Part shown: one piece after another, positions 2-29,225 of the stretch | How positions within the stretch are numbered: position 1 is the first letter of the stretch | Layout of the letters: every line of letters starts with the position of its first letter | NCBI GenBank assembly: GCA_003221005.1 | Contig: QHTZ01000072.1 | Coordinates: 1-47,512 of the forward strand | Direction of reading: 5' to 3' | Length of the DNA stretch: 47,512 bases | From: Gemmatimonadota bacterium | Lineage (GTDB): Bacteria > Gemmatimonadota > Gemmatimonadetes > Gemmatimonadales > GWC2-71-9 | Program-made: the position numbers and the translations under genes | The notes under the pieces: model-generated | The model's input: the letters and a program-made list of their open reading frames with translations, nothing else | Told to the model about the DNA's origin: nothing | The model's database searches: none

Positions 2-373
2 GCCGCGCTGCCGCCGTCGAACACCGCGGGCGTGCTCGAGGCGCTGCACATCATGCAGGGCGAGCCCTGGCGCCGGGACCGGTTGTGGACGAACACGCGG
101 ATGCTCCAGGAAGGTCTGCGCTCGCTCGGCTTCGATATCGGGCCGACCAAGACGCCGATCGTTCCCGTGCTCATCGGACCGCTCGAGAAGACGTTCCTGT
201 TCTGGCGCCAGCTGTTCGACGCGGGCGTGTTCACCAACCCCGTCGTGCCCCCGGCCGTCCCGCCGTCGCAGTGCCGGTTGCGGACCAGCCTCATGGCGAC
301 CCACACTTCCCAGCAGATCGAGCAGGCACTGGAGACGTTCGCCCGGCTCGGCAAAGAGCTGGGGGTCATCTGA
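2..373 (+). CDS. spt: C-terminal part of a PLP-dependent alpha-oxoamine synthase, probably serine palmitoyltransferase (5' truncated by window edge)
   Basis: Frame from position 2 reads AALPPSNTAGVLEAL...TPIVPV...GVFTNPVVPPAVP...RLRTSLMATHT, a typical class II aminotransferase/AOS C-terminus. Spt rather than BioF/Kbl is inferred from the coupled bCerS-like and CerR-like genes. Confidence 0.7.
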   Translation, partial: AALPPSNTAGVLEALHIMQGEPWRRDRLWTNTRMLQEGLRSLGFDIGPTKTPIVPVLIGPLEKTFLFWRQLFDAGVFTNPVVPPAVPPSQCRLRTSLMATHTSQQIEQALETFARLGKELGVI

Positions 374-378
374 GCGCA

Positions 379-1485
379 GTGGAGATCGTGCCCGTCACCG
401 ACGGGCGCGGTCTCGAGCGCTTCATCGCCTTTCCCTACGAGCACTACCGCGGCGACCCGCTGTGGGTCCCGCAACTGCGGATGGACGTCCGCACGCTTCT
501 CTCTCCCCGGAAGAACCCCTTCTTTCAGCACGCCGAGGTGCAGTGCTTCGTCGCACGCTCGGACGGCCGGACGGTCGGACGGATTGCCGCGATCAAGAAC
601 GACGCTCATAACCGGGAGCACAACGACCGGGTGGGCTTCTATGGGTTCTTCGAATCGGTGGACGACCAGGCGACGGCGAACGCATTGTTCGACGCCGCAG
701 CCGCCTGGCTGCGCAACAAGCGGTTCGACACGATGCGCGGGCCGATGAACCCGTCGATCAACGACGACTGCGGCCTGCTGGTGCAGGGCTTCGAGACCCC
801 CCCGGTGGTGATGATGCCGCACAACCTCCCGTCCTACGTGGCCCTGCACGAACGCTACGGACTCCGCAAGGCCAAGGACCTGATCGCGTTCGAGTCCACG
901 AGCGCGCAGATCCCCGAGCGCCTGGCGCGAGCCGGCCGCGTGCTCGCGGAGCGGAAGGGGATCACGCTGCGCCCCCTCGACATGAAACGGTTCGGCGCCG
1001 AGGTCGAGCTCGTGAAGGCGCTGTACAACGAGGCGTGGGAGAAGAACTGGGGGTTCGTGCCGCTCACGGACGCCGAGATCGAACACCTCGCGAAGCAGCT
1101 CAAGCCCGTGGTCGTCCCCGAGCTCGTCTGCTTCGCCGAGCGCGGCGGCAAGGTCATCGGCTTCGGCGTGGCGCTCCCGGACCTGAACGTCGCGTTGAAG
1201 CACAACCCGTCCGGACGCCTGTTCCCCGGGATCCTCAAGATCCTGTGGCACGCGCGGCGCATCTCGCGCATCCGCGTGCTGCTGCTTGGCGTGGTCAAGG
1301 AGTACCGTGGCAGCGGCGTGGATGCGCTCATGTACCACTGGATCTGGGAGAAGGGGGCCGCGAAGGGGTACCACTGGGCCGAGGGCGGGTGGATCCTCGA
1401 GGACAACGTCCCGATGGTCAACGCCGCGCTGCGGCTCGGCTTCAGTCCGTACAAGACCTACCGGATCTTCGACAAGGCCCTGTGA
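379..1485 (+). CDS. bcerS: GNAT-fold N-acyltransferase, bacterial ceramide synthase (bCerS/YghO-like family)
   Basis: Motifs DPLWVP, NPFFQH, GRIAA, GFYGFFE, RGPMN, MMPHN, YNEAWEKNWGFVP, LPDLN, LLGV..YRG.G, WILEDN. Start is GTG 379, or CTG 370 overlapping the upstream stop. The ORF-track start at 85 is shadow extension. Confidence 0.75.
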   Translation: MEIVPVTDGRGLERFIAFPYEHYRGDPLWVPQLRMDVRTLLSPRKNPFFQHAEVQCFVARSDGRTVGRIAAIKNDAHNREHNDRVGFYGFFESVDDQATANALFDAAAAWLRNKRFDTMRGPMNPSINDDCGLLVQGFETPPVVMMPHNLPSYVALHERYGLRKAKDLIAFESTSAQIPERLARAGRVLAERKGITLRPLDMKRFGAEVELVKALYNEAWEKNWGFVPLTDAEIEHLAKQLKPVVVPELVCFAERGGKVIGFGVALPDLNVALKHNPSGRLFPGILKILWHARRISRIRVLLLGVVKEYRGSGVDALMYHWIWEKGAAKGYHWAEGGWILEDNVPMVNAALRLGFSPYKTYRIFDKAL

Positions 1486-2453
1486 AGGCGTTCGTCACGG
1501 GCGGGACGGGGTTTCTCGGCACCCACCTCGTGAACGCGCTGCTCGCCCGCGGGGACGACGTGACGTGCCTGGTGCGATCGCCCTCCAAAGCGGCGAGCCT
1601 CGAGCGGCGCCGCGTCCGGCTGATCCGCGGCGATCTCGATGACGCCGGCGCGCTACGGCGGGGGTGCGCTGGCGCGGACGTCATCTTTCATCTCGCCGGC
1701 CGCATCGCCGCGCGTGACTTGAACGCCTTCATGCACGCGAACCGCGACGGGACCGCAAATCTCCTCGAGGCCGCCGCCGAGCGGCCGCCGCGACGCTTCG
1801 TGTACGTGTCCTCGCTCGCCGCCGCCGGCCCGACGGTGCCCGGCCAGCCAATCGACGAAACCCGCCCCCCCGCCCCCGTCACGCCTTACGGCCAGAGCAA
1901 GCTCGCCGGCGAGGTGCTGGTGCGCGCGGTGGCGTTTCCCTGGACTGTCGTGCGGCCGCCGCTCGTGTACGGCGAGTGGGACCGCGCGACGTTGGCGATT
2001 TTTCGTCTGGCGAACCGGGGGATCGTGCCGCTGTTCGGCGACGGGTCGCAGCAACTCTCTCTGATCTACGGGGCGGACGTGGCGGCGGCGCTCGTCGCCG
2101 TGATCGCAACGGAGCGCACGGTGGGCCGCGTATATTTTGCGGCGCACCCGGAGATCACGACGGCGCGAGAGCTCGCACTGGCGGTGGGCCGCGCGCTGGG
2201 GAAGAGGCCGCGCGTGCTCCCGGTCCCGGCGCCGGTCGCGCGCGCGGTGCTGTGGACGGTGGGCACGCTCGCGCGCGTCGCCGGTCGGGCCGCCCTGTTG
2301 TCGCCCGAGAAGGCACCAGACTTTCTCGCCCCCGCCTGGACGTGCCGCGCAGACGCGCTCCGGACCGACGCGGGATGGGAAGCGCGCACCGACCTCGTCA
2401 CGGGAGTGGCCCGCACGGCGGCGTGGTATCGCAAGGAGGGATGGCTCGGGTGA
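1482..2453 (+). CDS. Extended SDR NAD(P)-dependent epimerase/reductase, candidate ceramide/3-keto reductase
   Basis: GTGA overlap with the upstream stop; MKAFVTGGTGFLG Rossmann motif, HLAG, YVSS, YGQSK catalytic YxxxK, RPPLVYG. Confidence 0.8.
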   Translation: MKAFVTGGTGFLGTHLVNALLARGDDVTCLVRSPSKAASLERRRVRLIRGDLDDAGALRRGCAGADVIFHLAGRIAARDLNAFMHANRDGTANLLEAAAERPPRRFVYVSSLAAAGPTVPGQPIDETRPPAPVTPYGQSKLAGEVLVRAVAFPWTVVRPPLVYGEWDRATLAIFRLANRGIVPLFGDGSQQLSLIYGADVAAALVAVIATERTVGRVYFAAHPEITTARELALAVGRALGKRPRVLPVPAPVARAVLWTVGTLARVAGRAALLSPEKAPDFLAPAWTCRADALRTDAGWEARTDLVTGVARTAAWYRKEGWLG

Positions 2454-3340
2454 AAGACGGGAAGCTGGCCCTGGTCGACCTCGCGACGTTGATCTATGTC
2501 GCCGTGAGCACGGTGGCCGTCCTCGTCTTCACCGGGGGTGACCGCGTGGGATCGATCGCGCTCTTGAGCGCGCATATCCTCGCGGTGTGTCTCGTCCTGC
2601 TCGCGCCGCAGGCCCGCGCGGACGGTCCGACTGGGCGGTTCGCAGGTGACTGGTACCCGTTGCTGCTCCTGGGCGCGTTCTACGCCGAGGTCGGGGTCCT
2701 GAACGTCGACGTCGGCTATCACCACGACCTCGCGATCCAGCGCCTTGAACAGTGGGTCTTTGGCTCGCAGCTGTCGTATCGCTGGATCCGGGAGATGCCG
2801 AATCCGGGGCTGTCCTGGCTGCTGCACTGCTGCTACCTCGCGTACTACGTGATCCTGTACGCGTCGCCGCTGGGCCTTTGGATCTCCGGCCGGCGCGACG
2901 CGGCCCGATTCACGATCTTCGCGGTCGTGGCCACGTTCTACCTATGCTTCATGGTGTTTCTGTTCTTCCCAGTGACAGGCCCGCGTTACGCGCTCGCGCT
3001 CGCGGACAACGCGGCGACGCGGGTGTGGCCGGCACGCGCGGCGCAGTGGGTCCTCGATCAGGGCGACTCCTGGGGCGCGGCGTTCCCGTCGTCGCACGTC
3101 GCCGGCGCGGTCGTGGCGACGCTGTGCGCCGTGCGCTTCTGGCGGCCGCTGGGACTGATCCTGCTGCCGTTCACGGTCGGCATGACCTTCGCCGTGGTGT
3201 ACGGCCAGTTCCACTACGCTGTGGATGCCGTGGCAGGTCTGGTGGTGGCGGTCGCCGTGTTGACTTCGCTCAACGCAGGCGCGACCCGCGTGGCCGCGGT
3301 GGCGCTGCGACCGTCCGCGGCCGAGGAGGCCGTTTCCTAG
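2450..3340 (+). CDS. PAP2-superfamily membrane protein, AUR1/inositol-phosphoceramide-synthase-like
   Basis: Multiple TM helices; [24 protein letters not shown] motifs (AUR1 D3/D4-like); GTGA overlap and AAGGAGG upstream. Confidence 0.75.
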
Positions 3341-3942
3341 GCGCTCCTGAGTGCCGCCGCCCGCGACGCGACCGTGTCGAGATCGCCACCCAACGCGTCC
3401 ATCTCGCGCTGAAACCGGCAGTCCAGGACGAGGAGCCCCACGACGTACCCCACCAGGTTCACGAGAAAGATGATCGTGAAGAGCAACGGATACGGGAACC
3501 AGATCCCGAAGTACAGCGCGAACCGCTTGCAGCCGGGATCGAGCCCGGAGCGGTGCGCGACGGTCGTCAGCAGCAGGATCGCGAGCAGGGCGAGCAGGAC
3601 CAGTCCGAGGGGCGCGAGCTTCGCATAGGCGAACGCCAGGAAGATCACGGCCTCGGAGGCCCGGTCGAGCACGTCATCCAGTCGCTTGCCCGCCTCGGAG
3701 ACGAGGCCGAACTCGCGCGCGATGCCCCCGTCCACGCCGTCCAGCACCTGCCCCACCGCCATGAGCACGAGACCCGCGCCGACGCGGCCCGAGGCGATCG
3801 CCGCCGCAGCCGCCGCGCTCACCCAGAACGCGGCCCAGGTTACCTGCCGCGGCGTCGCCCCGAGCTTCAGGTGCAGGAACCGCAGCAGCGGCCCAAGCAC
3901 GCGATCCGAGACCCGGCCGAGCGCCGGAGCGAAGTCATACAT
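3337..3942 (-). CDS. CDP-alcohol phosphatidyltransferase family protein
   Basis: TPRQVT and DGVDGGIAR...[10 protein letters not shown] signature; hydrophobic. Confidence 0.9.
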
Positions 3943-4378
3943 GGAGCCAGCCCCAGTAGAGCGCCACGTTCAGCACCAGCAGCACCGTAAAGAGAATGCC
4001 TTCCTTTACCTTGTCAGGCACGCTCGCCAACCACCCCCGCGTGACGTACGCGGAGTACGGGTAGAACGGCATTTTCTCGAAGCGCACGCTGTAGTCCATG
4101 GCCACGTGGATCGCGAAGAACAAAATCGGGACGATCGTGCCGAGGAATAGGGACAGGGGAACAATCCATAACAGGGCTACGGGCTCCTGCAGCGACGAGC
4201 GCCAGTAGTAGCCCCGCTTGTCCCGCAGTCCCACAGCCCGCAGGTAGTAGGGCGCCTTGACCGCGTGGTCGATGTCGACCCCCATGCCGAAGGCGTACGC
4301 GAGCACCTTGTCGCGGCCCTCGAGCCCCAGGGCCTGCACGCCCAGCGTCGTCGCGAGGAAGTGCGTCACGATCGTCAC
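3935..4378 (-). CDS. Small membrane metal-dependent hydrolase (YdjM-like)
   Basis: GTG start overlapping the upstream TGA; VTH...GVDIDH...IHVAMD...PFYP pattern; about 4 TM segments. Confidence 0.6.
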
Positions 4379-5370
4379 GGCACCGACTCCACGGCGGTGC
4401 GGCGCCCCGCGCTCCACACGAGCAGCAGACCGACGCCGATCCAGACGAGATCGCGGATGCGGGTGACGATTGCCGTGTAGACACCGAGGCGTGGATCGAG
4501 CCCGAGCAGCTGGAACAGCAGGTAGAGCGACGCTTCCTTCGTCCCCACTTCGAAGGGCACGACGAACAGGACGTTCTGGATCAGCGACACGAGCCCGCCG
4601 ATGAGATACGCCCCGAGATAACCGATGGGCAACCCGATGGACAGCGCGACGAGGTAGTACTCGGCCATGTAGATACAGCGACTCAGGTATTCGAGGGCGA
4701 GCGCACGGGCGAAGCGACCGGGATGCCGCTGATAGAACTCCGCCATCTGCGCATCCATCTGGGCCAGGAGCTCGCGCCGCGGCTCGAACGCGCGGGCGAG
4801 CCGGCCGCACAGCGGCACGTGGTGGAGCGCGTCGAGCAGCTTCTCGAGCGCGCCCCGCCGGTGCCCGGAGAAGAGCACAGCCGTGAGCGCTCCGACCGTG
4901 AGCGTCGCCACGCTCAGGGCGATGAGCAGAGCTGCGTCATGCGGCAGCATCACGAACCCGAGCAGCAGCGCCGTGAGCCAGCTCAGGAGAAAGCTGAGGC
5001 CGCGCAGCACGTTGTGGATGAGCACGGAGCCGGCGGCGCGCCGCGTGGAGACCCAGGGTGCGACGGCCGCGATCTTGAACGGCTCGCCGCCCACGTTCAC
5101 CATCGGCGTGACGAAGTTGAGGGCGAACCCCGACGCCGTGACCGCATACAGGCGCCAGAACGAGGGCCGGCGTGGCTCGCCTGCGAGGATCAGCCGCCAT
5201 GCCGCGGCGTTGCACGCGTACACGAAGCCGTACAAGAGGAGGATCGGGAGGAACATCCAGCCGGTCTCGGCCGCGTCGGCGATCAGCGCCGCCAGGCCGA
5301 TGCGGGAAATCAGATATGCGAACAACGCCGACCCGCCGGCGAACAGCAGCAGCCGGGCGCGCCGGCTCAT
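4375..5370 (-). CDS. Lysylphosphatidylglycerol-synthase TM domain / UPF0104 flippase-like membrane protein
   Basis: W..IL, ALNFVTPMVNVGGEPFK, VPFEVGTKE, TRIRDLVW motifs; about 8 TM helices. Confidence 0.85.
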   Translation of the reverse strand: MSRRARLLLFAGGSALFAYLISRIGLAALIADAAETGWMFLPILLLYGFVYACNAAAWRLILAGEPRRPSFWRLYAVTASGFALNFVTPMVNVGGEPFKIAAVAPWVSTRRAAGSVLIHNVLRGLSFLLSWLTALLLGFVMLPHDAALLIALSVATLTVGALTAVLFSGHRRGALEKLLDALHHVPLCGRLARAFEPRRELLAQMDAQMAEFYQRHPGRFARALALEYLSRCIYMAEYYLVALSIGLPIGYLGAYLIGGLVSLIQNVLFVVPFEVGTKEASLYLLFQLLGLDPRLGVYTAIVTRIRDLVWIGVGLLLVWSAGRRTAVESVP

Positions 5371-6425
5371 AGGGTCGCGGCTGTGGGCACCTGGTCGGCT
5401 GTGCGCGAGGCCTCGTAGGCGAGCTCGAGCACCGCGGCGACCTGCGCGATGTCCTCGAGTTGCGCCGTTCCCTCACCCTCCTCCCGGTCGAGCGCTGCTA
5501 CGAACTCCCGAAACAGACCGGCGAACCAGCGCCAGTAGGAGGCCTTGTCGAGCTCGCGCGAGAAGTCGAGCCGCTCGGTCCGCCCGCTCCCGTCGAGCCG
5601 CAGCTCTCCACCCACCCACTCGATCGTCCCGGCGTCCCCGATGAAGCGCATCCGGTTCTCACGGTGGCGCGCGGCCCAGGTGAGGAACATGACCGCGAGC
5701 CGGTCGGGATAGGCGAGGACGAGGCTCGCCGTGTCCTCCACGTCGTACTGCCGGTGCAACAGCCGGCCGGTCCATGCGTGGACGACGGACGGCATGCCGG
5801 CGATGTCCAGCACCTGATAGAGTAGGTGCGTCCCGTGGTCCAGCAGCACGCCGCCGCGGCTCGCCCCGCTCGTCCCCCGCCAGGGACGGGCGTCCGGCCG
5901 CGCTCCCCCTCCGCCCCCTCCCCCGGGGTCGGCGAACTGGCGGTACACGGCGAACTCCGCGAGGTGCCAGCGCCCGATCAGCCCGGCCCCTAGCCACTCG
6001 CGCACCTTGAGCCAGCCGGGGTTGTGCCGGTACTGGTGGCACGGCATCACGATCCGCGAGTGCGCGCGGGCCGCGGCGGCCACTTGCGCAGCTTCCGCGC
6101 GGTTGAGCGCGACAGGCTTCTCGCAGATGACGTGGGAGCCACGCTCCAGCCCCCACAGCACGAGCTCGAGGTGGGACGCGGTGGGCGTGCACACGTCGAT
6201 GAAGTCGAGCGGACCGAATCGCTCCAGCTCGTCCAGGCGCCGCAGCAACGGGAGGCCATCGACCGGCGGCACGTCGGCGCTATCCACCACGGCGACGATC
6301 TCGACGCGGTCCCGCACGCCTGGGCCCTGGCGAAAGGCCGGGAGGTGGGCGCTGCGCGCGATTCCCCCCGACCCGATGACGGCACCCCGATAGACGCGTC
6401 GGGGAGCGGCGGCGTCAGTAGGCAC
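5367..6425 (-). CDS. Gfo/Idh/MocA family NAD(P) oxidoreductase
   Basis: IGSGGIA, VCTPTASH, HVICEKPVA, GGVLLDHGTH, VEDTA. Confidence 0.92.
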   Translation of the reverse strand: MPTDAAAPRRVYRGAVIGSGGIARSAHLPAFRQGPGVRDRVEIVAVVDSADVPPVDGLPLLRRLDELERFGPLDFIDVCTPTASHLELVLWGLERGSHVICEKPVALNRAEAAQVAAAARAHSRIVMPCHQYRHNPGWLKVREWLGAGLIGRWHLAEFAVYRQFADPGGGGGGGARPDARPWRGTSGASRGGVLLDHGTHLLYQVLDIAGMPSVVHAWTGRLLHRQYDVEDTASLVLAYPDRLAVMFLTWAARHRENRMRFIGDAGTIEWVGGELRLDGSGRTERLDFSRELDKASYWRWFAGLFREFVAALDREEGEGTAQLEDIAQVAAVLELAYEASRTADQVPTAATL

Positions 6426-7314
6426 TGGCCTCGCGCTCCAGGGCGGTGGACAGTGCCCCGGAGTTCGCCTCGTGGCTCGGCTGCAGGACCACGAAGAGCA
6501 GCAGGTTCATCGCCAGCACCTCGGTCCAGAGGTACGCCGACGGATGGCCGGCGATCCCGGCGAACCCGAGTAGCGCGAAGCGGATATTCTGGCCCAGCCA
6601 GCTGCACAGCGGCAGCAGTGGTTGCTGGCGCTCGCGATACGCGGCGCGGAACGACGGGGCGATGTGGACGCGCCGCAGCTGACGCAGCAAGTCCACCGTG
6701 CGCGGAAACAGCCACGTCTGGCGTAGCACATAGTTCGCATACACGGCTGCGGCAAAGCGCTGGAGCAGTGTCCCTTGTCCGGCGGCTGGCAGGTCCTCCG
6801 GGAGGTCCACCTCGCCCGTCGAGCCCTCGCCGATCGTCAGGTAGGCGTTGCGGATGAAATCCGCCGCCATGCTTTGAAGCGCGTGCGACAACCCCGCCAG
6901 GGCGGCCAGGAGCAGTCCGTACCAGTGCCAGCCCGCGAGCATGAGCCGGATGGCCAGATGGACGTAGAGGTTGACGAACCGCAGATGGTCGCCGATCCCG
7001 TCGAGCGAGCGCCCGAAGCGAGTGGAGGTGCCTCGCAGGCGTGCCAGCTGGCCGTCGGCCGAATCGAAGATGTCCGACACGATGAACAGGACGAAGCCGA
7101 TCGCGTTGACCCAGGGATCGCGATAGAGAAACAGGTGGCCCGCGACGAGGCCGATGAGGATGCACCACAGCGTGACCTGGTCGGCGGAGATCCCGGTTGG
7201 CTCGAGCGCGCGGGCGATGCGGATCCCGATCGGCCGGAAGAACCGGAGGTCGACCCACTCCTCGATCGCGACGCCCTTATGCGACAAGTCGTTCGGCGGC
7301 TTCACCGAGCACAT
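6415..7314 (-). CDS. CDP-alcohol phosphatidyltransferase family protein (long type)
   Basis: EEWVDLRFFRP, SADQVT, DSADGQLARLRGTSTRFGRSLDGIGD signature; start is ATG 7314 or GTG 7305. Confidence 0.9.
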   Translation of the reverse strand: MCSVKPPNDLSHKGVAIEEWVDLRFFRPIGIRIARALEPTGISADQVTLWCILIGLVAGHLFLYRDPWVNAIGFVLFIVSDIFDSADGQLARLRGTSTRFGRSLDGIGDHLRFVNLYVHLAIRLMLAGWHWYGLLLAALAGLSHALQSMAADFIRNAYLTIGEGSTGEVDLPEDLPAAGQGTLLQRFAAAVYANYVLRQTWLFPRTVDLLRQLRRVHIAPSFRAAYRERQQPLLPLCSWLGQNIRFALLGFAGIAGHPSAYLWTEVLAMNLLLFVVLQPSHEANSGALSTALEREASAY

Positions 7315-8611
7315 CCCTCATGGTGGCCAGCGCGGTCATCGCGTCGTCTTCCTGAATGACGAGCGGCGGGTTGATCCGGACTTCCGGATTGTAGATCATG
7401 GCGATCACGCCGCGCGCGAGCAACGTGTCGAAGATCCAGCGAGTCGTCTTCTTGTCGAGCAGGGTACGCGTCCCGGGCTTGACCAGGTCCATCCCGAGCA
7501 GCAGCCCGCGGCCGCGCACGTCGCTCACGATCGGCAGCTCGGTCTCCCACCGCTTCATCTCGGCCAGCATCTTCGCACCCAGGCGCCGCGCGTGCTCGAC
7601 GAGTCCCTCTTCCAGGATGGTCTCGAGCGTGATGCGCGCCGCCGCGGCCGCCAGGGGGTTGCCGCCGTACGACGACGAGCTCCCGCTCGGATTCGCGAAC
7701 GGCTTGGCGAACGCGACTTCCTCGCGCGCGATGATCCCGCTCATCGGGAAGCCGCCGCCGAACCCCTTGCCGATCGTCATCACGTCCGGGACGACTCCCT
7801 CGTGCTCGATCGCGAACATCTTCCCGGTGCGCCCGAATCCGGTGATCATCTCGTCGCAGATCAGGAGCGCCCCGAGCTCGTCCGCCAGACGCCGCAGCTG
7901 CTGCAGGTAGCCCGGCGGCGGCACCACGTTGCCCGCCGTCCCCTGAATCGGCTCCACGATGATCGCCGCCACATCACCCGTGGTTTCCACGTCGATCTTC
8001 TTCCGCAGAAAGTCCACGCAGTGCCATTCACACGACGGGAACGTCTTGTCGAACGCGCAGCGGGCGCACCCGGCGTACGGCGACAGGTAGCTTCCCGGCA
8101 TCAGGGGGCCGAGCTGGTGTTTGAAGCTCGCGCCGAGCAGCGGGAGCACCCCACCCGTCTTGCCGTGAAACCCGCCCCAGAACCCGATCAGCTCGCGGTG
8201 GCCGGTACGGGACTTGGCGAGGCGCACGGCCGCTTCGACCGCTTCCGCCCCGCTCGAATACAGCTGCGTGCGGTTGAGATCCCCCGGGGCGACCTCGGCC
8301 AGGAGCTTCACCAGCGCCGCCCGGTGCTCCGTGGTGAAGCTGCCCACGTGCACCCGCGCGATCTGGCGCTGGAGCCCCGCCACGTACTTAGGGTGGGCAT
8401 ACCCGAGGCTCGCCACGGCGACGCCGGCGAGCAGATCGATGTAGCGGTTCCCGTCGATGTCGTAGAGGATCGCGCCCTCGCCGCGGTCGATGCACAGCTG
8501 GCTGAAGAGCGCGACGCTTTGCGTGCCGGGGGCGAGGTAGCGCGCCTCCGCGTCGAACACCGACTTGGACTTGGCTCCGGGAACCCGAATCAGATGCTGC
8601 GCCTCGATCAC
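7277..8611 (-). CDS. Class III PLP aminotransferase
   Basis: DIDGNRYID, SSGAEAVEAA, GFHGKT, IVEPIQG, LICDEMITGFGRTG, DVMTIGKGFGGGFP, RGRGLL; GTG start overlapping the upstream TGA. Confidence 0.92.
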   Translation of the reverse strand: MIEAQHLIRVPGAKSKSVFDAEARYLAPGTQSVALFSQLCIDRGEGAILYDIDGNRYIDLLAGVAVASLGYAHPKYVAGLQRQIARVHVGSFTTEHRAALVKLLAEVAPGDLNRTQLYSSGAEAVEAAVRLAKSRTGHRELIGFWGGFHGKTGGVLPLLGASFKHQLGPLMPGSYLSPYAGCARCAFDKTFPSCEWHCVDFLRKKIDVETTGDVAAIIVEPIQGTAGNVVPPPGYLQQLRRLADELGALLICDEMITGFGRTGKMFAIEHEGVVPDVMTIGKGFGGGFPMSGIIAREEVAFAKPFANPSGSSSSYGGNPLAAAAARITLETILEEGLVEHARRLGAKMLAEMKRWETELPIVSDVRGRGLLLGMDLVKPGTRTLLDKKTTRWIFDTLLARGVIAMIYNPEVRINPPLVIQEDDAMTALATMRDVLGEAAERLVA

Positions 8612-9453
8612 GACAGTGTCCTGTTCTCTAGGCGGTCGTGGATGTACTCCGCGATAGCCCGCGCCGCCTCCTCGCGGAACGGCGCGAAGCTGGGCCAGTC
8701 GTTGATGTCGATGAGCACCGGGCGATCGCGCCGTGGGAAGGCCACGTCGCCCCCGAAAACCTCTAGTCCCAGCAGCGCCGCGGCGTCGAACGCGAGGGCC
8801 TTGAGCCGATCCTCGTCGATCGCGGGCCGCTCCCCACCGAACCCGGCGTCCGCCCCGTACCAGCGAAAGAACCGCCCGTCGGTGACCGCGTAGAACTTCA
8901 CCACGGGGCCAGGCACGTGCTGCTGCAGGGCGACCCACGGGATCCCGCGCCCTGCGAACGCCGCGAGCAGGGCCCCGAGGTCGTCCAGCGTCGTCGCCAC
9001 CACGTCCTCCCGCCGCTCGGCATGCACGTCGCCCCGTTTGATCCAGAGCTTCCGGTGATCCGAAGCCAGCTCCTGGAGTAGCTCGCGCGGCGGCGGGGGA
9101 GCGGAGCTGGGCTGAATCAGGGTGCGGGGGAAGGCGAGGTTGCTCCCCGCCATGTGCCGCACCAGCCGGTGGCGATGACAGTTGAGCACGCTCGTCGGCC
9201 GGTTCACGACCGCCGCTCCGTCCGCTTCGAGCGGCATCAACTGTTCCGACGCAAGCGACCCCTGGCACATGTTCAGATACAGCCGTGCCGCCGGCAGCCG
9301 CCCCTGTTCGACCTCTTCCTCGGTCGTGTTCGTCACCCGCCAGCCGCGCCGGTCGAGCTCCGCCGCCGTGGCCGCGAGAATCGCCGTGTCGTTGCTGCGA
9401 TGTTGCAACGGAGAATAGGACGGCCTGCGGTACACGGCGACCAGGTCTCGCAA
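8608..9453 (-). CDS. ATP-grasp fold protein (RimK/ITPK1-like C-terminal motifs), function unknown
   Basis: VVN.P.SV, FPRT, WIKRGD, LQQHVPGPVVKFYAV, LGLEVFGGD, LIDINDWPSF. Confidence 0.7.
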   Translation of the reverse strand: MRDLVAVYRRPSYSPLQHRSNDTAILAATAAELDRRGWRVTNTTEEEVEQGRLPAARLYLNMCQGSLASEQLMPLEADGAAVVNRPTSVLNCHRHRLVRHMAGSNLAFPRTLIQPSSAPPPPRELLQELASDHRKLWIKRGDVHAERREDVVATTLDDLGALLAAFAGRGIPWVALQQHVPGPVVKFYAVTDGRFFRWYGADAGFGGERPAIDEDRLKALAFDAAALLGLEVFGGDVAFPRRDRPVLIDINDWPSFAPFREEAARAIAEYIHDRLENRTLS

Positions 9454-9472
9454 GCGAACTCGCTCCCGGCTC

Positions 9473-10183
9473 TCAAGCCTTTGGCGAACCTAACCACGCG
9501 TTCGCGAGGCGCAAATCAGCCTCGTGGTCGATGTCGATGATGCGGGGAACGGTAACGCTTCCCACGCGGCCGCCACGCTCAATGAGCCAAGCGAGAAACC
9601 CACGCATGCGCTGCACCCCCAGCCCTACCGCTTCCGCCGCGGCTCGGCGGGCGGCGGGGGAGAAGCCGTAGGCGCCCCCCGTAACACACGGCGGCTCAAC
9701 GGGATCATCGGCTATTCCGAGAACGAGCCCGGCACTGTCCCGGCGCACGTAGACGGGAGACTCGTCGTCCACGAATGGCGTCACAACGAGCACGGCATCC
9801 CCACCCGCCGCGAGAGCCGCGGCCGTGGAACGGTACACGTCCCGCCAGTCCTGCGGCGGCATCACCGTATCCACCATCGTGCAGAATACCGGCCCGTCGG
9901 GAATCGTCTCGAGGCCGCTGGCGAGGGTGTGCAGCGACGACGGCGTGCGACACGGCCGGAGCGAGAATGGCCGTCCAAAGCCCCGACCTTCGAGCACCGT
10001 GAAGACGTCCGCGAAATCGCCTCGGACCATGCACGTGAGGGTCTCACAGCCGAGGTCCGCGAGCATGTCGAGCAGCCGCACCACGAGGGGCTCACCGCCC
10101 AACCGCACCAGCGGCTTCGGGACTGCCACGCCCTCGCCCGCCAGGCGCGACCCCTCTCCCCCAGCGAGGATCAGGCCGTGCAT
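9473..10183 (-). CDS. Nucleotidyltransferase (NTP_transferase/MobA-like)
   Basis: MHGLILAGGEGSRL..PKPLV; IIDIDH..DL. Confidence 0.9.
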   Translation of the reverse strand: MHGLILAGGEGSRLAGEGVAVPKPLVRLGGEPLVVRLLDMLADLGCETLTCMVRGDFADVFTVLEGRGFGRPFSLRPCRTPSSLHTLASGLETIPDGPVFCTMVDTVMPPQDWRDVYRSTAAALAAGGDAVLVVTPFVDDESPVYVRRDSAGLVLGIADDPVEPPCVTGGAYGFSPAARRAAAEAVGLGVQRMRGFLAWLIERGGRVGSVTVPRIIDIDHEADLRLANAWLGSPKA

Positions 10184-10890
10184 GCACCCGTGCCGCGGGG
10201 CGCGTCCGTCTCGCGCAGGGCGGCCTCCACCTCGGGGAGCCGCGCGATCCGCGCTGTGGGTGCGACGCCAGAAGGCGTCGGCCGGTCGGGCGGCGCAAGC
10301 CAGCAGGTCCGCATCCCAAGCGCGCCGGCGGGGCGGATGTCCGCTTCGACGTTGTCGCCCACCATCCAGGCTCGTTCGGGGGGCGTCTGCAGGCGCGCCA
10401 GCGTCTCTACGAAGATCCGGGGGTGGGGCTTCTCGACCCCAAGGATCGCGGAGTCGCTGACGACCGCGAAACACCGTCGCAGGTCCAGCTCCACGAGACA
10501 GGGATCCAGGTTGCCCGTGAAGTTCGAGACAACGCCCAGCGGATGGCGCAGCGCGAGCCGCTCGAGGACCGGCCGATTGCGATCCACGGTGGCGAGCGCG
10601 GCCGTGTGGAATCGCTCGGCGATCGCGCCCACCTCGACACGGCTGCCGTCGGGTACGAGCTGGCACAGCAGCTGAGCTTGTGCTTCGACCAACCCACGGA
10701 ATCCCAAGGTACGGATCCCCGACATGTGCTCGAGCGCCCGATCCGACGCCGTGAAGTGCGGCTCGAAGGCGGGATACTCGAGCGAGCCACCGGCCGCTCG
10801 ATACGCAGCGTGGAACCGTGGAGCCCAATGGATGCCATCGGCGTCCAACGTCCCGCCGAAGTCGAACAGCACGACTGTGGAATCGCTCAC
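10171..10890 (-). CDS. HAD-superfamily hydrolase
   Basis: LFDFGGTLD (motif I variant DxGGT), VVSNF, KPHPRIF, MVGDNVEADI. Confidence 0.9.
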   Translation of the reverse strand: MSDSTVVLFDFGGTLDADGIHWAPRFHAAYRAAGGSLEYPAFEPHFTASDRALEHMSGIRTLGFRGLVEAQAQLLCQLVPDGSRVEVGAIAERFHTAALATVDRNRPVLERLALRHPLGVVSNFTGNLDPCLVELDLRRCFAVVSDSAILGVEKPHPRIFVETLARLQTPPERAWMVGDNVEADIRPAGALGMRTCWLAPPDRPTPSGVAPTARIARLPEVEAALRETDAPRGTGACTA

Positions 10891-10923: not shown

Positions 10924-12018
10924 TCAGCGAGGGTGATGCCCCCCTCCCCCTCCCCCTCCAGCCTCGTGGCCCGGCATGTGCATTTCGTGACCGGACATCA
11001 TCATCATGTCATGACTCCCACCGATTCGCATCGCGTGCCTGAGGTCGCGCTGGTAGAGTGAGTCGGCGGGGTCCGTAGCCGGCCAGGCCGAGCCGCGGTC
11101 GGGGATGAACAGTCCGCCGACCACCCCCATGCCGCCGTCGGGGATCAACTGACCCGTGGGGTTGTCGTAGTACACGGTCACGCGGTAGCGGTGCGTGGGC
11201 ACGATCTGGACACCGAGCCGGCTCCAGCGGTACAGGCGCGCAATCGGGACGCCGACGATTTCGCCGGTCGAGTCCGTGCGCGGAGTCGCCTGATAGATGA
11301 TTTGGCCCGTCGTCGCGTCGGCAAACTCGAGGCGCCGCGCGTAGCGGTGCACGTGGCCGCCGATGCCCACGATGACGCCGGGCACGGCGGGATTCCCCTC
11401 GTACGCGCGCGACGAGCGTCCGGGAGAAAGGTCGAACGACTTGTCGCCGACTGGAAAGGCGACGTCCATCTGGAACGGCTCGGCGCGGAACAGCGGCCAC
11501 GGCCGACCAGCCGGTGTGTAGCTCAGCACCAGCCTCACTCGCGCCTGGTGATAGGACGAGTCGGTGGGGTTGTCGAGCATCGCACTCGCCAGCACCCGCT
11601 CGCCCCGCGTCACCGGGAAGCCGAACAGCAGCCAGGGAATGCGCATGGCTCCGGTCTCGTGCCCAGCGGCGATCATGCGCCGCGAGATCGGAAGGAACAG
11701 CTCGCGGTGGTCGGGATCGATGAGGTTGAAATGATGGATCAGTATGGACGGCAACTCGCGTGCGGTGCTGTCCACCATCTCGACGCGGAAAGCGTACACC
11801 GAGCCGCTCGCCGGCAGTTCGAGGATCGCGACCGGGGGCTGCGTCAGCTCGTGATGCGAGGTGTGCGCGGGAAGGTCGACGGGGGCGAGATCGATGAACA
11901 TCTCCCCCTTTGCGGCATCGACCAGCACCCGGGCGCCGGCGGCATCGGAGCGCCCGGGACCGGGCCCGGCTCCAAAGGCCAACAGGAGAGTTGCCGAGAG
12001 AGCGATAGGGCGCCGCAC
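10924..12018 (-). CDS. Secreted protein resembling copper type II (PHM-like) monooxygenases, with a His/Met-rich tail
   Basis: N-terminal signal peptide; IHHFN, GGHVH, YDNPTG....GGMG; C-terminus HDMMMMSGHEMHMPGH. Confidence 0.55.
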   Translation of the reverse strand: MRRPIALSATLLLAFGAGPGPGRSDAAGARVLVDAAKGEMFIDLAPVDLPAHTSHHELTQPPVAILELPASGSVYAFRVEMVDSTARELPSILIHHFNLIDPDHRELFLPISRRMIAAGHETGAMRIPWLLFGFPVTRGERVLASAMLDNPTDSSYHQARVRLVLSYTPAGRPWPLFRAEPFQMDVAFPVGDKSFDLSPGRSSRAYEGNPAVPGVIVGIGGHVHRYARRLEFADATTGQIIYQATPRTDSTGEIVGVPIARLYRWSRLGVQIVPTHRYRVTVYYDNPTGQLIPDGGMGVVGGLFIPDRGSAWPATDPADSLYQRDLRHAMRIGGSHDMMMMSGHEMHMPGHEAGGGGGGGHHPR

Positions 12019-12078: not shown

Positions 12079-13938
12079 TCAAGGCTCCGTCGCGGAGAGT
12101 ATCCGCTGCCGCTGCCCCGCCGTCACCATGTCCCGCTCCACTACGTCGCGCACGATGCGGGCGACGAAGGCGTAGCCGCGCGGCTCGGCGCCGAGCCAGC
12201 GGTGCCACTCGAGCTCGTCGAGGGCAGCCGCCAGCCGCGCGGACTCGAGCCCCGCCCCGCGGCCCAGCCGCTCCGCCGCGACGCGCCCACCGAGCACCGC
12301 GGCCACGGTGAGGACGCGCTGCGCCTCCGCGCTCAAGCGCCGGAACTGAATCCGGATCGCGGCGACGACGGCGTCGGGGAGGTCGCCCGGAAGGGTCTGG
12401 TCCAAGGTCCTACAGGGCTCGGGCCACGCGCCGGCCGACTCTCGCAGGTCGAGCCCTGAGGCGACCGCCTGGAACAGCTCGACCGCGAGCAGGGGAATGC
12501 CCGCTGAATCGGTGGCGACGCGGCGCGTGACCCGGTCGATCTGGATGTCGTCATACCTGGGCAGCGCCCAGCGGGCGAGGTCCTGCAGTGCCGCCGCCGG
12601 CACCGGCTCCAAATGCACCGTCGTGCCCGCCAGGTCGCGCCCCAGGCGGGCGCGGATCTCGTCCAGCTCCGCGCGGCCGGGGCGCGCGCTGGTCGTGATG
12701 AGGATCGCGAGCGGTGCGCGTGCGAGGTCCCGGATCGCGGCGACGACCGCGAGCAGCGATTCGCGATCGAGCCAATGCGCGTCGTCCAGCAGGAGCAGCA
12801 TCGGCTGCTCGTCGCACACTGCCCCGAGCACGTCGCTGAACGCGCGCCCCAAACCCGACGCGGGCGTCCCCTCGCGCAGCGCCGCGAGGGCCGCGGGCGC
12901 AGCCCCCGCGACCCCGGGCGCGTCGAGGACGCCGCCTCGCGCCAGACCGAGGATGCCGCTCCACTGGTCAGCCAGGTCCGCCTCGACCGCGCGGATCGCT
13001 GCCGTCGCGGCCCCGTCCAGCCTCGCCCGCGCGACGACCTCCTCCGCAAGGCGAGTCTTCCCGGTCCCGACATCTCCCTCGACGACGCTCACGATCGGGT
13101 GACGGTCGCGCCGGCACTCGGCCCAGACGTTCAGGAGCCGCTCCAACTCCGCGGCGCGCCCCACGAGGGGGGCGCGACGGGGCACTTCGCCCCGCTCGGG
13201 GGCCCCTTCGGGCCGCGGGAGGCGCCACGTTCGCTCGCGCCGCACCCGCTCCGCGAGCGCCCACGTCTCGGCGTCGGGAGCCGCTCCCATCTCGCCGAGC
13301 CGCGCTGCAAGCTCCTCGAAGCATGCGAGCGCGCCGGCCCGGTCGCCGGCCAGGGCCCGCGCGCGCATGGCCGTTCGCGCCGCCGGCTCGGAGAGCGGAT
13401 CAAGCAGCAACGCGCGTCGCGCCACGTCTAGCGCCGCCGCGCCGTAGCCCGCGCCCAGCAGCTCCTCCGTCAGCCCGGTGAGGACCTGGATCGAGCGCTG
13501 CCGCCACGCCGCCCGCTCCGCCGTGAGCCAATTCTCGAATTCCGAGGCTCCGCGGACGCCAAACCCTTCGAGGAACTCCCCCGCCACGAAGGCCGCCGCG
13601 CCCCGGAAATCCCGGGCAGCGGCGAGCGTCTCGAAGCGATCGAGATCGAGCTCCACGGCCTCCGGCGAGAGGCGCACCTGACCACCATCGGTATCGACGC
13701 CGCCGTCGCCGGCGAGACGACGCAGCACCCGGACCGCCTCGTTCAGGGAGTGGCGCGCCGCGGCTTCGGGCTTCTCGGCCCAGAGGAGGCCGATCAAGTG
13801 CTCGCGCGTCCGCGTGCGCTTGGGAGACCGTGCGAGGTAGACCAGGAGCGCGAGGTTCTTGCGCCACAGCAGCTCCGCGGGCGCGGCTGCGCCGTCCACG
13901 CTCACGTCCACCGGCCCCAGCGTCCGGCAATGGATCAT
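12079..13938 (-). CDS. SARP/BTAD transcriptional regulator with AAA (STAND-like) ATPase domain
   Basis: MIHCRTLG...LALLVYLA...LWAE...ARHSL; BTAD (GEFLEGF, FENWL, LDPLSE); Walker A GDVGTGKT; LLLDDAHWLD; ATGA overlap with the kinase stop. Confidence 0.88.
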   Translation of the reverse strand: MIHCRTLGPVDVSVDGAAAPAELLWRKNLALLVYLARSPKRTRTREHLIGLLWAEKPEAAARHSLNEAVRVLRRLAGDGGVDTDGGQVRLSPEAVELDLDRFETLAAARDFRGAAAFVAGEFLEGFGVRGASEFENWLTAERAAWRQRSIQVLTGLTEELLGAGYGAAALDVARRALLLDPLSEPAARTAMRARALAGDRAGALACFEELAARLGEMGAAPDAETWALAERVRRERTWRLPRPEGAPERGEVPRRAPLVGRAAELERLLNVWAECRRDRHPIVSVVEGDVGTGKTRLAEEVVARARLDGAATAAIRAVEADLADQWSGILGLARGGVLDAPGVAGAAPAALAALREGTPASGLGRAFSDVLGAVCDEQPMLLLLDDAHWLDRESLLAVVAAIRDLARAPLAILITTSARPGRAELDEIRARLGRDLAGTTVHLEPVPAAALQDLARWALPRYDDIQIDRVTRRVATDSAGIPLLAVELFQAVASGLDLRESAGAWPEPCRTLDQTLPGDLPDAVVAAIRIQFRRLSAEAQRVLTVAAVLGGRVAAERLGRGAGLESARLAAALDELEWHRWLGAEPRGYAFVARIVRDVVERDMVTAGQRQRILSATEP

Positions 13939-24292: not shown

Positions 24293-24830
24293 GCCGCACC
24301 TCCTCGGCCCCGCAGCGCTTGAGCAGCGCTTCGACGGGCGCGGCCTGCGCCCGGCTCGCGGGGACGAAGATGCCGAACTTGTCGTTGGTAAAGCGCGGAT
24401 CGTACGCGATGGTGCCCTGATGCCGGGTCGCGAGCAGGACGTTGAACGCGATCCCGAGCAGCGTGGTGAGCGCGCCGAACAGCACCGTCATCTCGAACAT
24501 GATGACGACGTACGGAGGGATCGAGCCGATGGTCTTGCCGCCCACCTGCACTGGCCAGTCGTACGACATGTACAGCGTGATCCACGTGCCGATAGCACAC
24601 CCCGAGATCCCGCCGATCAGCGTGTACATGCGCACCGGGCTCACCGGCTGGGCGAGCGCGTCTTCCAGCTCGTGGCGCGGGAGCGGTGAGTACACCGTGA
24701 AATCCTTGTGGCCGTCGCGCTTCAGCTGGTGGATCGCGTCCACCGCGGCGTCCAGGTGCCCGAACACCGCGAGCACGCCGGGTGTCGGCGGCGGGTGGAA
24801 GATCGCGGCCAGCGGGTTGCCGAGCTTCAC
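24285..24830 (-). CDS. actD: Alternative complex III subunit ActD (DUF3341)
   Basis: YSPLP.H, DWP..VGGK, FEMTVLFG, YDPRFT.DKF; GTG overlapping the actC stop. Confidence 0.88.
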   Translation of the reverse strand: MKLGNPLAAIFHPPPTPGVLAVFGHLDAAVDAIHQLKRDGHKDFTVYSPLPRHELEDALAQPVSPVRMYTLIGGISGCAIGTWITLYMSYDWPVQVGGKTIGSIPPYVVIMFEMTVLFGALTTLLGIAFNVLLATRHQGTIAYDPRFTNDKFGIFVPASRAQAAPVEALLKRCGAEEVRHG

Positions 24831-26191: not shown

Positions 26192-26197
26192 CGTCGC

Positions 26198-29206: not shown

Positions 29207-29225
29207 GGGGTCTCCCCCGCCCCGC

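Follow-up and report, generated by a model that had tools for sequence, protein, structure and literature searches.

What would be made by two convergent operons that set ceramide-type genes back to back with a set of polyol head-group genes, in a soil-type bacterium of the phylum Gemmatimonadota? To our knowledge, bacterial sphingolipids have been characterised in a few lineages only. The excerpted text of PMC12275187 lists sugars, phosphoglycerol, phosphoglycerate, and phosphoethanolamine as their head groups, and passages of PMC9246714 add phosphoinositol. The operons lie in a 47,512-nucleotide stretch (GenBank assembly GCA_003221005.1, contig QHTZ01000072.1, forward strand), which we call the window; it is the entire contig C70 of a 141-contig, 2.79-Mb assembly that is 94% complete, and its G + C content is approximately 69% throughout. 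The best explanation that we can offer is that a ceramide module and an inositol head-group module stand back to back and that the head group ends on ceramide; we consider this explanation evenly poised between right and wrong. Its parts differ in strength, and the evidence for each is given below together with the alternative that it bears on.

By GC3 frame analysis, open reading frame listing, and start-codon inspection, the locus consists of four plus-strand and nine minus-strand genes in convergent orientation (Table 1). All 12 junctions among the 13 genes measure between -38 and +19 nt, and the terminal stop codons of the two operons overlap in the palindrome CTAG at 3337-3340. As the GC3 frame signals coincide with exactly the 13 called frames and gene order is kept in relatives, the layout is more than chance. 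Pfam and NCBIfam back the class of 11 of the 13 genes, the exceptions being the ATP-grasp enzyme and the 147-aa protein. Gene content and layout had been described in a first-pass annotation made from the letters and open reading frames alone, and that description was borne out with four corrections, concerning the spt fragment, the family calls, the ATP-grasp enzyme, and a supposed metallohydrolase.

Table 1. Genes of the two convergent operons and their conserved upstream neighbours (positions in the window; bits/cut-off where given)
Feature	Length (aa)	Position	Strand	Basis
spt, C-terminal part of an SPT-like alpha-oxoamine synthase	123	2..373	+	Pfam Aminotran_1_2; NCBIfam NF047600 best
GNAT acyltransferase, candidate bCerS-like ceramide synthase	368	379..1485	+	Pfam Acetyltransf_1 (PF00583), 25.3 bits/20.7
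Extended SDR / NAD-dependent epimerase-family reductase, candidate CerR-like	323	1482..2453	+	Pfam Epimerase
PAP2_3 membrane protein, candidate sphingomyelin/IPC-synthase-type transferase	299	2441..3340	+	PF14378, 74.1 bits/27
Second CDP-alcohol phosphotransferase, optional cassette tail	201	3337..3942	-	CDP-OH_P_transf, 49.1 bits
Small membrane protein, possibly YdjM-like metal-dependent hydrolase	147	3935..4378	-	Language-model look-alikes
LPG_synthase_TM / flippase-like membrane protein	331	4375..5370	-	PF03706, 104 bits/33.4; TIGR00374, 51.1/43.2
Gfo/Idh/MocA NAD(P)-dependent oxidoreductase	352	5367..6425	-	Pfam GFO_IDH_MocA and C-terminal domains
Main CDP-alcohol phosphotransferase, DIPPS/AF2299/PIPS type	299	6415..7314	-	PF01066, above cut-off 22
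Class III (GabT/ArgD-like) PLP aminotransferase	444	7277..8611	-	Aminotran_3 (PF00202), 314.4 bits/30.5
ATP-grasp enzyme	281	8608..9453	-	Structure model, pLDDT 90.5
MobA-like/sugar-phosphate-type nucleotidyltransferase	236	9473..10183	-	Pfam NTP_transf_3, 52.8 bits
HAD-superfamily hydrolase	239	10171..10890	-	Pfam Hydrolase (PF00702), 59.2 bits/26.4; HAD_2
Conserved neighbour, hydrophobic N-terminus, His/Met-rich C-terminal tail	364 (or 325)	10924..12018	-	No Pfam/NCBIfam match
SARP/BTAD-AAA transcriptional regulator, possible regulator	669	12079..14088	-	Pfam BTAD, AAA_16, Trans_reg_C

The first gene of the plus-strand operon had been read as an alpha-oxoamine synthase (AOS). The class is right, and what the window holds is a C-terminal fragment only, which scored 129.6 bits with the SPT model NF047600 (profile positions 273-393). 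The N-terminal 317 aa lie on the minus strand of another contig (C72:1-951; 352 bits with SPT, profile positions 4-252), and some 20 residues are missing between C72 and C70, a gap in which we assume the PLP-binding lysine of SPT roughly to fall. In a full-length orthologue (L070:2295-3500; 76-83% identity), SPT reached 530.8 bits compared with 411 for BioF, 398.9 for Kbl, and 267.4 for ALAS; with SPT leading by approximately 120 bits, the enzyme scores best as SPT and not as BioF/Kbl, in agreement with the initial call. The other AOS of this genome is a clear Kbl (497.7 bits, cut-off 460). The GNAT encoded next has its closest homologues, at 74-78% identity, in proteins labelled Gemmatimonadales or Gemmatimonadota, and on this ground an actinomycete origin, first considered because of the 70% GC, the SARP regulator, and the Ser/Thr kinase, was rejected; no NCBIfam model matched the GNAT, and a feature-based Atlas search returned only 'N-acetyltransferase family' clusters. 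The start of the SDR gene overlaps the GNAT stop by 4 nt, and the SDR matched Epimerase (PF01370, 144.6 bits), NAD_binding_10 (89.6 bits), and also 3Beta_HSD. In PAP2_3, PSSH and HYxVD show at least 95% conservation in a set of 18 sequences, and we take these motifs to be the His/His/Asp catalytic set of sphingomyelin and inositol phosphorylceramide (IPC) synthases.

We compared 18 loci around GNAT homologues in relatives belonging to three families. The order spt-GNAT-SDR was kept in all 18 and PAP2_3 adjoined in 15, so that the synteny predicted for the ceramide side holds and Spt-GNAT-SDR(-PAP2_3) is a conserved unit. The spt-GNAT pair with a convergent PAP2_3 was also found in one Methylomirabilales and one Acidobacteriota metagenome-assembled genome (MAG). 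Our phylum sample comprised 401 Gemmatimonadota genomes, including some marked unpublished (G020, G083, G121, G201, and G176) that enter the counts only, and the GNAT was present in 245 of them, with an uneven spread over families (161/165 in f1, 14/94 in f2, 28/30 in f6, and 20/70 in f7). Among 151 sampled Alphaproteobacteria, 21 carried homologues, 19 of them full-length at 33-42% identity and 2 weaker. In several Gemmatimonadota genomes, second and third full-length GNAT paralogues with 31-40% identity also occur away from spt (e.g., G026:C1:359463-360548 and G034:C11:5995-7101).

Divergently from spt lie a PAP2 phosphatase gene (PF01569, 65.9 bits) and an amino-acid permease gene (C72:920-3054; L004). 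The permease holds the same position in G003, G001, G005, G016, G280, and G368, and the PAP2 gene does so in more genomes; the pair could serve serine supply or lipid dephosphorylation.

The plus-strand genes best fit a bacterial Spt/bCerS/CerR set with a sphingomyelin/IPC-synthase-like transferase, as judged from protein families and motifs. Not all of the evidence runs this way. The full-length spt orthologue stays below the equivalog cut-offs of the SPT models (530.8/640 for NF047600, 433.9/500 for NF047599, and 369.8/670 for NF047603), which tells against ceramide, no family model matches the GNAT, and no acyl carrier protein or acyl-ACP synthetase gene stands beside spt, where the neighbours are the PAP2 phosphatase and the permease. 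Such a picture would also suit an AOS-GNAT-SDR operon for some other lipid built on an N-acylated amino alcohol or amino ketone, such as a sulfonolipid-like compound or a different alpha-oxoamine product. We regard this as very improbable, given the lead of SPT over BioF and Kbl, the identity of the gene trio with the classes of the Caulobacter pathway described in passages of PMC11087976, and the sphingomyelin/IPC-synthase-type PAP2_3 attached to it. The plus-strand operon thus very probably makes ceramide.

We next consider the minus-strand cassette. Both of its CDP-alcohol phosphotransferases (CDP-OH transferases) match PF01066, the main one with 45.4 and the second one with 49.1 bits, and their translations contain the complete signature DxxDGxxAR-x8-G-xxx-D-xxx-D, the residues of which are invariant in alignment A3. 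(Alignments A2 and A3 are subsets chosen for spread; A3 omits L013 because of an in-frame stop, and A1 omits the 330-aa L053.) The omitted sequence (L013, G003:C102 7131-8030) is the main CDP-OH orthologue of a genome of the same genus, and its single in-frame stop could reflect a sequencing error or a pseudogene. In a profile search of the PDB, the main CDP-OH transferase matched AF2299 at 106.5 bits, IPCT-DIPPS at 63.7, PIPS at 44-50, CEPT1 at 25, and PssA at 21. Its structure model (pLDDT 90.8) has a six-helix core with a helical insert of approximately 60 residues and is without extra C-terminal helices; the nearest folds are IPCT-DIPPS (Z 17.0) and PIPS (Z 15.1 and 13.8), with CHPT1 at approximately 10. 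According to passages of PMC4634129, the six-helix form serves soluble acceptors such as inositol phosphate, whereas lipid-acceptor enzymes have 3-4 additional helices. The six-helix architecture of the model therefore makes a direct Kennedy-type transfer of the head group to ceramide by this enzyme, as the first-pass annotation would have had it, less likely.

The nucleotidyltransferase gave full-length profile matches in the PDB only to IPCT (2xme, 42.7 bits) and IPCT-DIPPS (4mnd, 40.6 bits), while partial matches to ManC/RmlA scored higher (44-52 bits); a single-sequence search of the PDB brought up generic relatives only. On the full-length matches it is a candidate CTP:inositol-phosphate cytidylyltransferase. 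In the LPG_synthase_TM protein, the PF03706 match spans residues 10-308, and an MprF-type C-terminal aminoacyl-transfer domain is absent. In all 19 HAD sequences compared, which come from six phyla, motif I reads DFGGTLD, within [FIV]DFGGTLD. With Gly in place of Asp at +2, the second Asp of canonical phosphatases is absent, and it is this residue that acts as the general acid/base in HAD phosphatases; the atypical motif suggests that the enzyme may catalyze chemistry other than phosphate hydrolysis.

For the ATP-grasp enzyme, the fold proposed at first is upheld by the structure model, while a significant Pfam match is lacking (the window protein reached E 0.038 at best, and the best of 22 members 0.0012; E 0.22 with Ins134_P3_kin), and a sequence search of the PDB gave no match at E up to 10. 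Its closest fold is RimK (Z 21.2, root-mean-square deviation 3.4, 254 residues aligned; Foldseek probability 1.00), followed by ArgX (20.5), LysX (19.9), Ddl (19.2), PPIP5K2 (17.8), and ITPK1 (17.6), many ATP-grasp enzymes exceeding Z 15; judged by the model, it could be a ligase or a kinase. The aminotransferase scored best with PRK05769 in NCBIfam (368.5 bits, cut-off 552) and reached no equivalog cut-off; in the PDB it comes closest to aminotransferases for GABA and putrescine. No gene of the cassette is better conserved: the copies in nearly all loci from other phyla show 51-58% identity to it. The Gfo/Idh/MocA oxidoreductase matched named enzymes weakly and PDB entries unspecifically. The 147-aa protein, first called a metallohydrolase, has no Pfam or NCBIfam match, and what speaks for that call is that its language-model look-alikes are named as metal-dependent hydrolases, 27% of one near cluster carrying YdjM. 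It shows conserved His and Asp residues in 12 sequences and always occurs together with the second CDP-OH transferase.

How far this cassette is conserved was examined in 20 Gemmatimonadota loci, chosen for spread among 47 other carriers. The order HAD-nucleotidyltransferase-ATP-grasp-aminotransferase was kept in all 20, confirming the expected synteny on this side also; CDP-OH and the oxidoreductase follow in 19 (the remaining locus ends at a contig edge), and LPG_synthase_TM was present in 17. Both tail genes, which encode the 147-aa protein and the second CDP-OH transferase, occur in 9 of the 20 loci and in 0 of 80 loci elsewhere. Of the nine-gene operon originally described, seven genes are thus a conserved core and the last two are optional. 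With the ATP-grasp protein as marker, the cassette was present in 48 of the 401 genomes (42/165 in f1, 5/94 in f2, and 0/141 in all other families). In G001, a genome of the same genus, the 364-aa neighbour and a HAD gene of 61% identity are followed directly by PAP2_3 (L014, C37 9261-11907); eight genes, starting with the nucleotidyltransferase and ending with the second CDP-OH transferase, are missing, which looks like a recent secondary deletion.

A profile search with the ATP-grasp protein yielded 1279 cluster representatives at E ≤ 0.001, of which 447 remained at E ≤ 1e-30. Natural fusions join the nucleotidyltransferase to ATP-grasp, HAD to both of these, and ATP-grasp to CDP-OH or to HAD, and precomputed domain lists show HAD with LPG_synthase_TM and CDP-OH with LPG_synthase_TM in single proteins. 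Using one fusion protein, we retrieved 80 loci from Acidobacteriota (including Thermoanaerobaculia), Nitrospirota, Methylomirabilota/Rokubacteria, Chloroflexia (Chloroflexota), and Alphaproteobacteria. Their typical order is LPG_synthase_TM-HAD-nucleotidyltransferase-ATP-grasp-aminotransferase-oxidoreductase-CDP-OH, and the window proteins found matches to CDP-OH in 79 loci, ATP-grasp in 58, aminotransferase in 54, oxidoreductase in 54, LPG_synthase_TM in 50, nucleotidyltransferase in 49, and HAD in 47. Spt, GNAT, PAP2_3, and both tail genes occurred in none of the 80. Neighbour clustering and Pfam identified the commonest additional neighbour as myo-inositol-1-phosphate synthase (MIPS), located directly downstream of CDP-OH in 42 of the 80 loci, which lends direct genomic support to the cyclitol origin of the head group proposed at the outset. 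Other recurrent neighbours, DXP synthase (30/80 loci) and MacB/HlyD/OEP efflux genes (14-16/80), look lineage-specific.

Because of the MIPS linkage, the IPCT- and DIPPS/PIPS-like enzymes, and a likeness by gene class to a cluster of Bacteroidetes, an inositol-phosphate pathway is the best reading of the cassette, and its product is probably inositol-derived. The same features raise the alternative of a soluble compatible solute of the di-myo-inositol-phosphate type, perhaps aminated, that would be formed from CDP-inositol and inositol phosphate and then dephosphorylated; no lipid would be involved, and the proximity of lipid genes would be meaningless. A nucleotidyltransferase, a six-helix CDP-OH transferase, a phosphatase-class enzyme, and MIPS are indeed the set of the IPCT/DIPPS pathway, MIPS is linked in more than half of the loci outside the phylum, and AF2299 and IPCT-DIPPS, to which the main CDP-OH transferase is nearest among solved structures, do not process lipids (PMC4634129, in the passages on these enzymes). 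Against a solute stand LPG_synthase_TM within the operon in 17/20 and 50/80 loci, its listing in single proteins with CDP-OH or HAD, the repeated adjacency of the cassette to ceramide genes (below), the fold scores of the lipid-making PIP synthases, which are little lower (Z 15.1 and 13.8), and an analogous Bacteroidetes cluster in species that make inositol lipids, according to parts of PMC9246714. Because of the flippase-like gene, its domain pairing with CDP-OH and HAD, and the ceramide adjacency, we favour a membrane lipid as the likely product and judge the solute improbable.

Most versions of the cassette have the oxidoreductase and the aminotransferase, and some (L074, L088, L097, and L121) lack both. 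This pattern would suit a head group on which a hydroxyl is converted to an amine only optionally, and we lean slightly towards an aminated head group. A carboxylate-to-amine route in which ATP-grasp, oxidoreductase, and aminotransferase would act in sequence, by analogy to LysX/LysJ, was also considered and is disfavoured, because the ATP-grasp gene persists in these four loci without the other two and because it fuses with the nucleotidyltransferase, HAD, and CDP-OH, and never with the aminotransferase. In three Acidobacteriota MAGs (L072, L073, and L101), the cassette is split into two divergent units, LPG_synthase_TM-HAD-(ATP-grasp fused to CDP-OH) and nucleotidyltransferase-ATP-grasp-aminotransferase-oxidoreductase; given the two ATP-grasp paralogues in this arrangement, the enzyme may act at two steps.

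Does the head group then end on ceramide? Co-occurrence of the two operons, as the initial description implied, was found in the phylum sample, in which 47 of the 48 cassette carriers have the GNAT, the exception being G015. In f1 this is trivial because nearly all f1 genomes have the GNAT. In f2, where the GNAT is rare (14/94), it is nevertheless present in all five cassette carriers, with a hypergeometric chance of approximately 4e-5 by hand calculation; as these carriers belong to two genera only, they amount to about two independent events. Taking adjacency as ATP-grasp and GNAT within approximately 8.5 kb, we find the operons side by side in at least 18 of the 48 carriers, in three arrangements: convergent with PAP2_3 in between (genera g1, g33, and g59), convergent without PAP2_3 (g71), and a co-directional single string running from spt-GNAT-SDR-HAD through to LPG_synthase_TM (g77). 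For the f2 carriers that lack PAP2_3 beside SDR, we considered the cassette as a stand-in for PAP2_3 and rejected this, since PAP2_3 homologues of 36-39% identity lie elsewhere in 5/5 genomes.

Alternatively, the cassette could make an (amino)inositol glycerophospholipid only, and the product of PAP2_3 would be a common type of ceramide with a phosphoethanolamine, phosphoglycerol, or phosphoinositol head group; the operons would then be neighbours through co-regulation of envelope lipids or through rearrangement. Several distributions suit this alternative: Spt and GNAT were absent within 10 kb of the cassette in 80 of 80 loci from other phyla, the cassette occurs in genomes in which no bCerS-like gene was found, and in 12 of the 20 Gemmatimonadota loci it stands apart from the ceramide genes (in one case 146 kb away on the same contig). 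In addition, many genomes without the cassette have PAP2_3 together with the ceramide genes (13/18 loci), and the cassette is far rarer than the GNAT (48 compared with 245 of the 401 genomes). The adjacency in three arrangements, across five genera and two families and including one co-directional string, argues against it, as does the confinement of all five f2 carriers to the few f2 genomes with the GNAT. On balance, we consider a cassette that never serves ceramide unlikely in this phylum.

The first-pass view of an operon specific to ceramide did not hold. At least five other phyla have the cassette as a free-standing module, and of 10 carrier genomes searched in these phyla 6 gave no ceramide genes, as did G015. 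As the cassette occurs in other phyla together with MIPS and often without ceramide genes, it is an independent, probably inositol-based module, and it is in Gemmatimonadota only that it is coupled to sphingolipids. Because it works elsewhere without ceramide genes and its transferase resembles soluble-acceptor enzymes, the route to a sphingolipid is likeliest an indirect one via a glycerophospholipid.

Gene classes, folds, motifs, conserved order, co-occurrence, fusions, and MIPS linkage are observed, whereas every substrate, the amination, the lipid nature of the product, and the ceramide anchor are inferred in the mechanism that we propose, which is as follows. In the ceramide module, SPT would condense serine with an acyl thioester, the GNAT would N-acylate the product in the manner of bCerS, the SDR would reduce the 3-keto group in the manner of CerR, and PAP2_3 would move a phospho-head group from a glycerophospholipid to ceramide. 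The cassette would encode a seven-gene inositol head-group pathway, with two extra genes in this lineage. Its precursor would be myo-inositol-1-phosphate, provided by a MIPS encoded elsewhere in this genome and within the operon in other phyla. The nucleotidyltransferase would make a CDP-activated cyclitol, the six-helix DIPPS/PIPS-type CDP-OH transferase would form the phosphodiester, and HAD would remove or move a phosphate. The oxidoreductase and the class III aminotransferase would convert a ring hydroxyl to a ketone and then to an amine, giving an inosamine-type head group; the ATP-grasp enzyme would phosphorylate the cyclitol or ligate a carboxylate to it, and the LPG_synthase_TM protein would flip the finished lipid. 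The anchor would be a glycerolipid in most phyla. In Gemmatimonadota, PAP2_3 would transfer the head group from an (amino)inositol glycerophospholipid to ceramide, much as BT_1522 and AUR1 act on phosphatidylinositol (PI); we give ceramide as the anchor in this organism at best an even chance.

A number of observations weigh against this proposal. No enzyme of the proposal reaches the equivalog cut-off of a named family. PAP2_3 scored 20.1 bits with the PI-dihydroceramide synthase model NF052609 (the BT_1522 model; cut-off 480), over profile positions 217-289 only. The main CDP-OH transferase stays below the equivalogs for PIPS (34.8/170), archaetidylinositol-phosphate synthase (50.0/180), and IPCT-DIPPS (33.7/580), and so does the second one, which scored 55.4/180 for archaetidylinositol-phosphate synthase, its best, 42.2/170 for PIPS, and 37.4/580 for DIPPS; these three are still the best-scoring named families of both transferases. 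The oxidoreductase reached 43 bits over 83 residues with the inositol 2-dehydrogenase IolG (TIGR04380, cut-off 355). HAD fails the phosphatase motif I, DxDx(T/V), its second catalytic Asp being replaced by Gly, and the ATP-grasp enzyme is closer to the RimK/LysX ligases (Z 20-21) than to inositol-phosphate kinases (approximately 17.6-17.8). Aminotransferases of the GabT/ArgD group usually use terminal amines or aldehydes, not ring ketones. The distribution of genes adds further points. PAP2_3 homologues are present in all five f2 carriers, so that the cassette does not take the place of PAP2_3. Neither a GNAT nor an Spt orthologue was found in G015, a 90% complete genome of the same family as the window organism, so the cassette does not need ceramide. 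Among the 10 carrier genomes from other phyla, whose completeness was not established, a strong bCerS-like GNAT (39-47% identity) occurs in 4, while of the 6 without it 5 showed none and 1 a weak partial match; in four of the GNAT-less carriers, the AOS paralogues found were of BioF/Kbl level only. MIPS is near-universal in the phylum (378/401 genomes and 45/48 cassette carriers), so its presence in this genome is uninformative. Finally, the nearest solved relatives of the main CDP-OH transferase are non-lipid enzymes by the account in the cited part of PMC4634129, and the lipid-acceptor helices described there are absent from the model.

Because MIPS is near-universal, its co-occurrence was dropped as a test of inositol within the phylum; MIPS was found in 0 of the 20 Gemmatimonadota cassette loci and in 0 of the 18 spt loci. 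In the window organism, MIPS lies beside a PIP-synthase-like CDP-OH gene (159.6 bits, cut-off 170) on contig C44:12424-14400 (L051). This pair is the standard bacterial PI route and is separate from the cassette; seven CDP-OH transferase genes were found in the 2.8-Mb genome.

Upstream of HAD in the window lies the gene for the 364-aa neighbour, which adjoins PAP2_3 directly in G016, a genome of another genus, and spt in the f2 loci of G136, G295, and G349. Where the cassette stands apart from the ceramide genes, this neighbour is missing. It accompanies the ceramide operon, not the cassette, and it may be a sphingolipid accessory factor or a metal-binding periplasmic protein. The SARP regulator holds the same position in G001, G280, and G368, and together with a 946-aa Ser/Thr protein kinase it stands just upstream of the locus (12079-16775, minus strand). 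Further along the window, an NrfD-like membrane protein is encoded beside a 1104-aa molybdopterin-oxidoreductase/4Fe-4S dicluster fusion (24827-29512, minus strand), a pair that presumably resembles ActC/ActB of alternative complex III. The remaining genes are unrelated and encode a VIT-VWA protein, an anti-sigma-like protein, the molybdopterin oxidoreductase and NrfD proteins, enolase-superfamily and DHDPS-like proteins, a second class III aminotransferase, a heparinase-like protein, and a solute-binding protein.

Taken as a whole, we put forward only tentatively that the cassette encodes an undescribed class of amino-inositol phosphate lipids in at least six phyla, and that these would be built on ceramide in Gemmatimonadota as the first aminocyclitol phosphosphingolipid. 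No report linking Gemmatimonadota to sphingolipid genes was found in the literature, although supplements could list the phylum or the genes, and PMC11334938 does not mention Gemmatimonadota; supplementary files aside, we likewise found neither a paper describing a cluster of such gene classes nor an inosamine lipid. With the GNAT in 245 of 401 Gemmatimonadota genomes and look-alike sets in Methylomirabilota and Acidobacteriota, sphingolipids would be common in abundant, poorly cultured soil phyla. The cassette itself is a compact, strictly ordered operon in at least six phyla. If the proposal is true, bacteria of soil and groundwater would widely contain an amino-inositol lipid, a new zwitterionic or cationic head-group chemistry with possible consequences for desiccation tolerance, resistance to antimicrobial peptides, and lipid biomarkers. 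The unconfirmed alternative inositol-lipid genes of gut Bacteroidetes would thereby gain a function as well.

Known systems resemble the locus in different parts. Dehydrogenase and aminotransferase pairs make amino sugars and aminocyclitols in the kanosamine (NtdC/NtdA/NtdB), RifL/RifK/RifM, and inosamine pathways, in which Gfo/Idh/MocA, PLP aminotransferase, and HAD enzymes convert a ring hydroxyl to an amine. The aminotransferases of these pathways are mostly of the DegT/AHBA-synthase type, whereas that of the cassette is a GabT/ArgD-like class III enzyme. The archaeal IPCT/DIPPS enzymes and Archaeoglobus fulgidus AF2299 are the closest solved CDP-OH relatives and share the six-helix core; however, the archaeal products are soluble solutes, while here the two activities lie in separate genes to which flippase-like and amine-forming enzymes are attached.

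Among sphingolipid systems, Caulobacter crescentus makes ceramide by Spt, bCerS, and the NDUFA9-like reductase CerR, according to passages of PMC11087976, and the same three enzyme classes, likened by class, form one tight operon here. The present locus differs in phylum, in the contiguity of the three genes, in having no ACP or acyl-ACP synthetase gene nearby, and in SPT scores below the cut-offs. Caulobacter CpgD (CCNA_01210) is described in parts of PMC12275187 as the phosphoglycerate cytidylyltransferase for ceramide diphosphoglycerate, which makes CDP-glycerate. It resembles the cassette nucleotidyltransferase as a soluble cytidylyltransferase near sphingolipid genes that provides a CDP-activated head-group donor; its substrate is phosphoglycerate, not a cyclitol, and the text cited proposes no CDP-alcohol phosphotransferase.

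The logic of our best explanation is that of BT_1522-BT_1526 in Bacteroides thetaiotaomicron (MIPS, PIP synthase, PIP phosphatase, and an AUR1-like PI-dihydroceramide synthase), in which BT_1522 is the demonstrated PI-dihydroceramide synthase by the account in PMC9246714, as far as excerpted. In both, an inositol-phosphate CDP-OH transferase and a phosphatase-class enzyme would build a lipid from which a PAP2-family transferase moves the head group, and MIPS and PIPS-like genes are present in our genome as well, though MIPS lies outside the locus. Here, by contrast, the phosphatase-class enzyme is HAD instead of PgpA, PAP2_3 falls far below the BT_1522 model, and four enzymes are added, namely the nucleotidyltransferase, ATP-grasp, oxidoreductase, and aminotransferase. 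Closer in gene classes is the alternative inositol-lipid cluster of B. vulgatus and Prevotella, in which, according to passages of PMC9246714, an NTP transferase, a CDP-alcohol phosphatidyltransferase, and HAD of unconfirmed function are clustered with MIPS and a homologue of LPG synthase, the species concerned being producers of PI-dihydroceramide. By class, the cassette has counterparts of all five genes, MIPS being part of the operon in loci of other phyla (42/80) and in 0 of the 20 Gemmatimonadota loci, and it adds ATP-grasp, the class III aminotransferase, and Gfo/Idh/MocA. The cassette is thus a variation on CDP-alcohol head-group pathways that adds three conserved enzymes and extends over at least six phyla.

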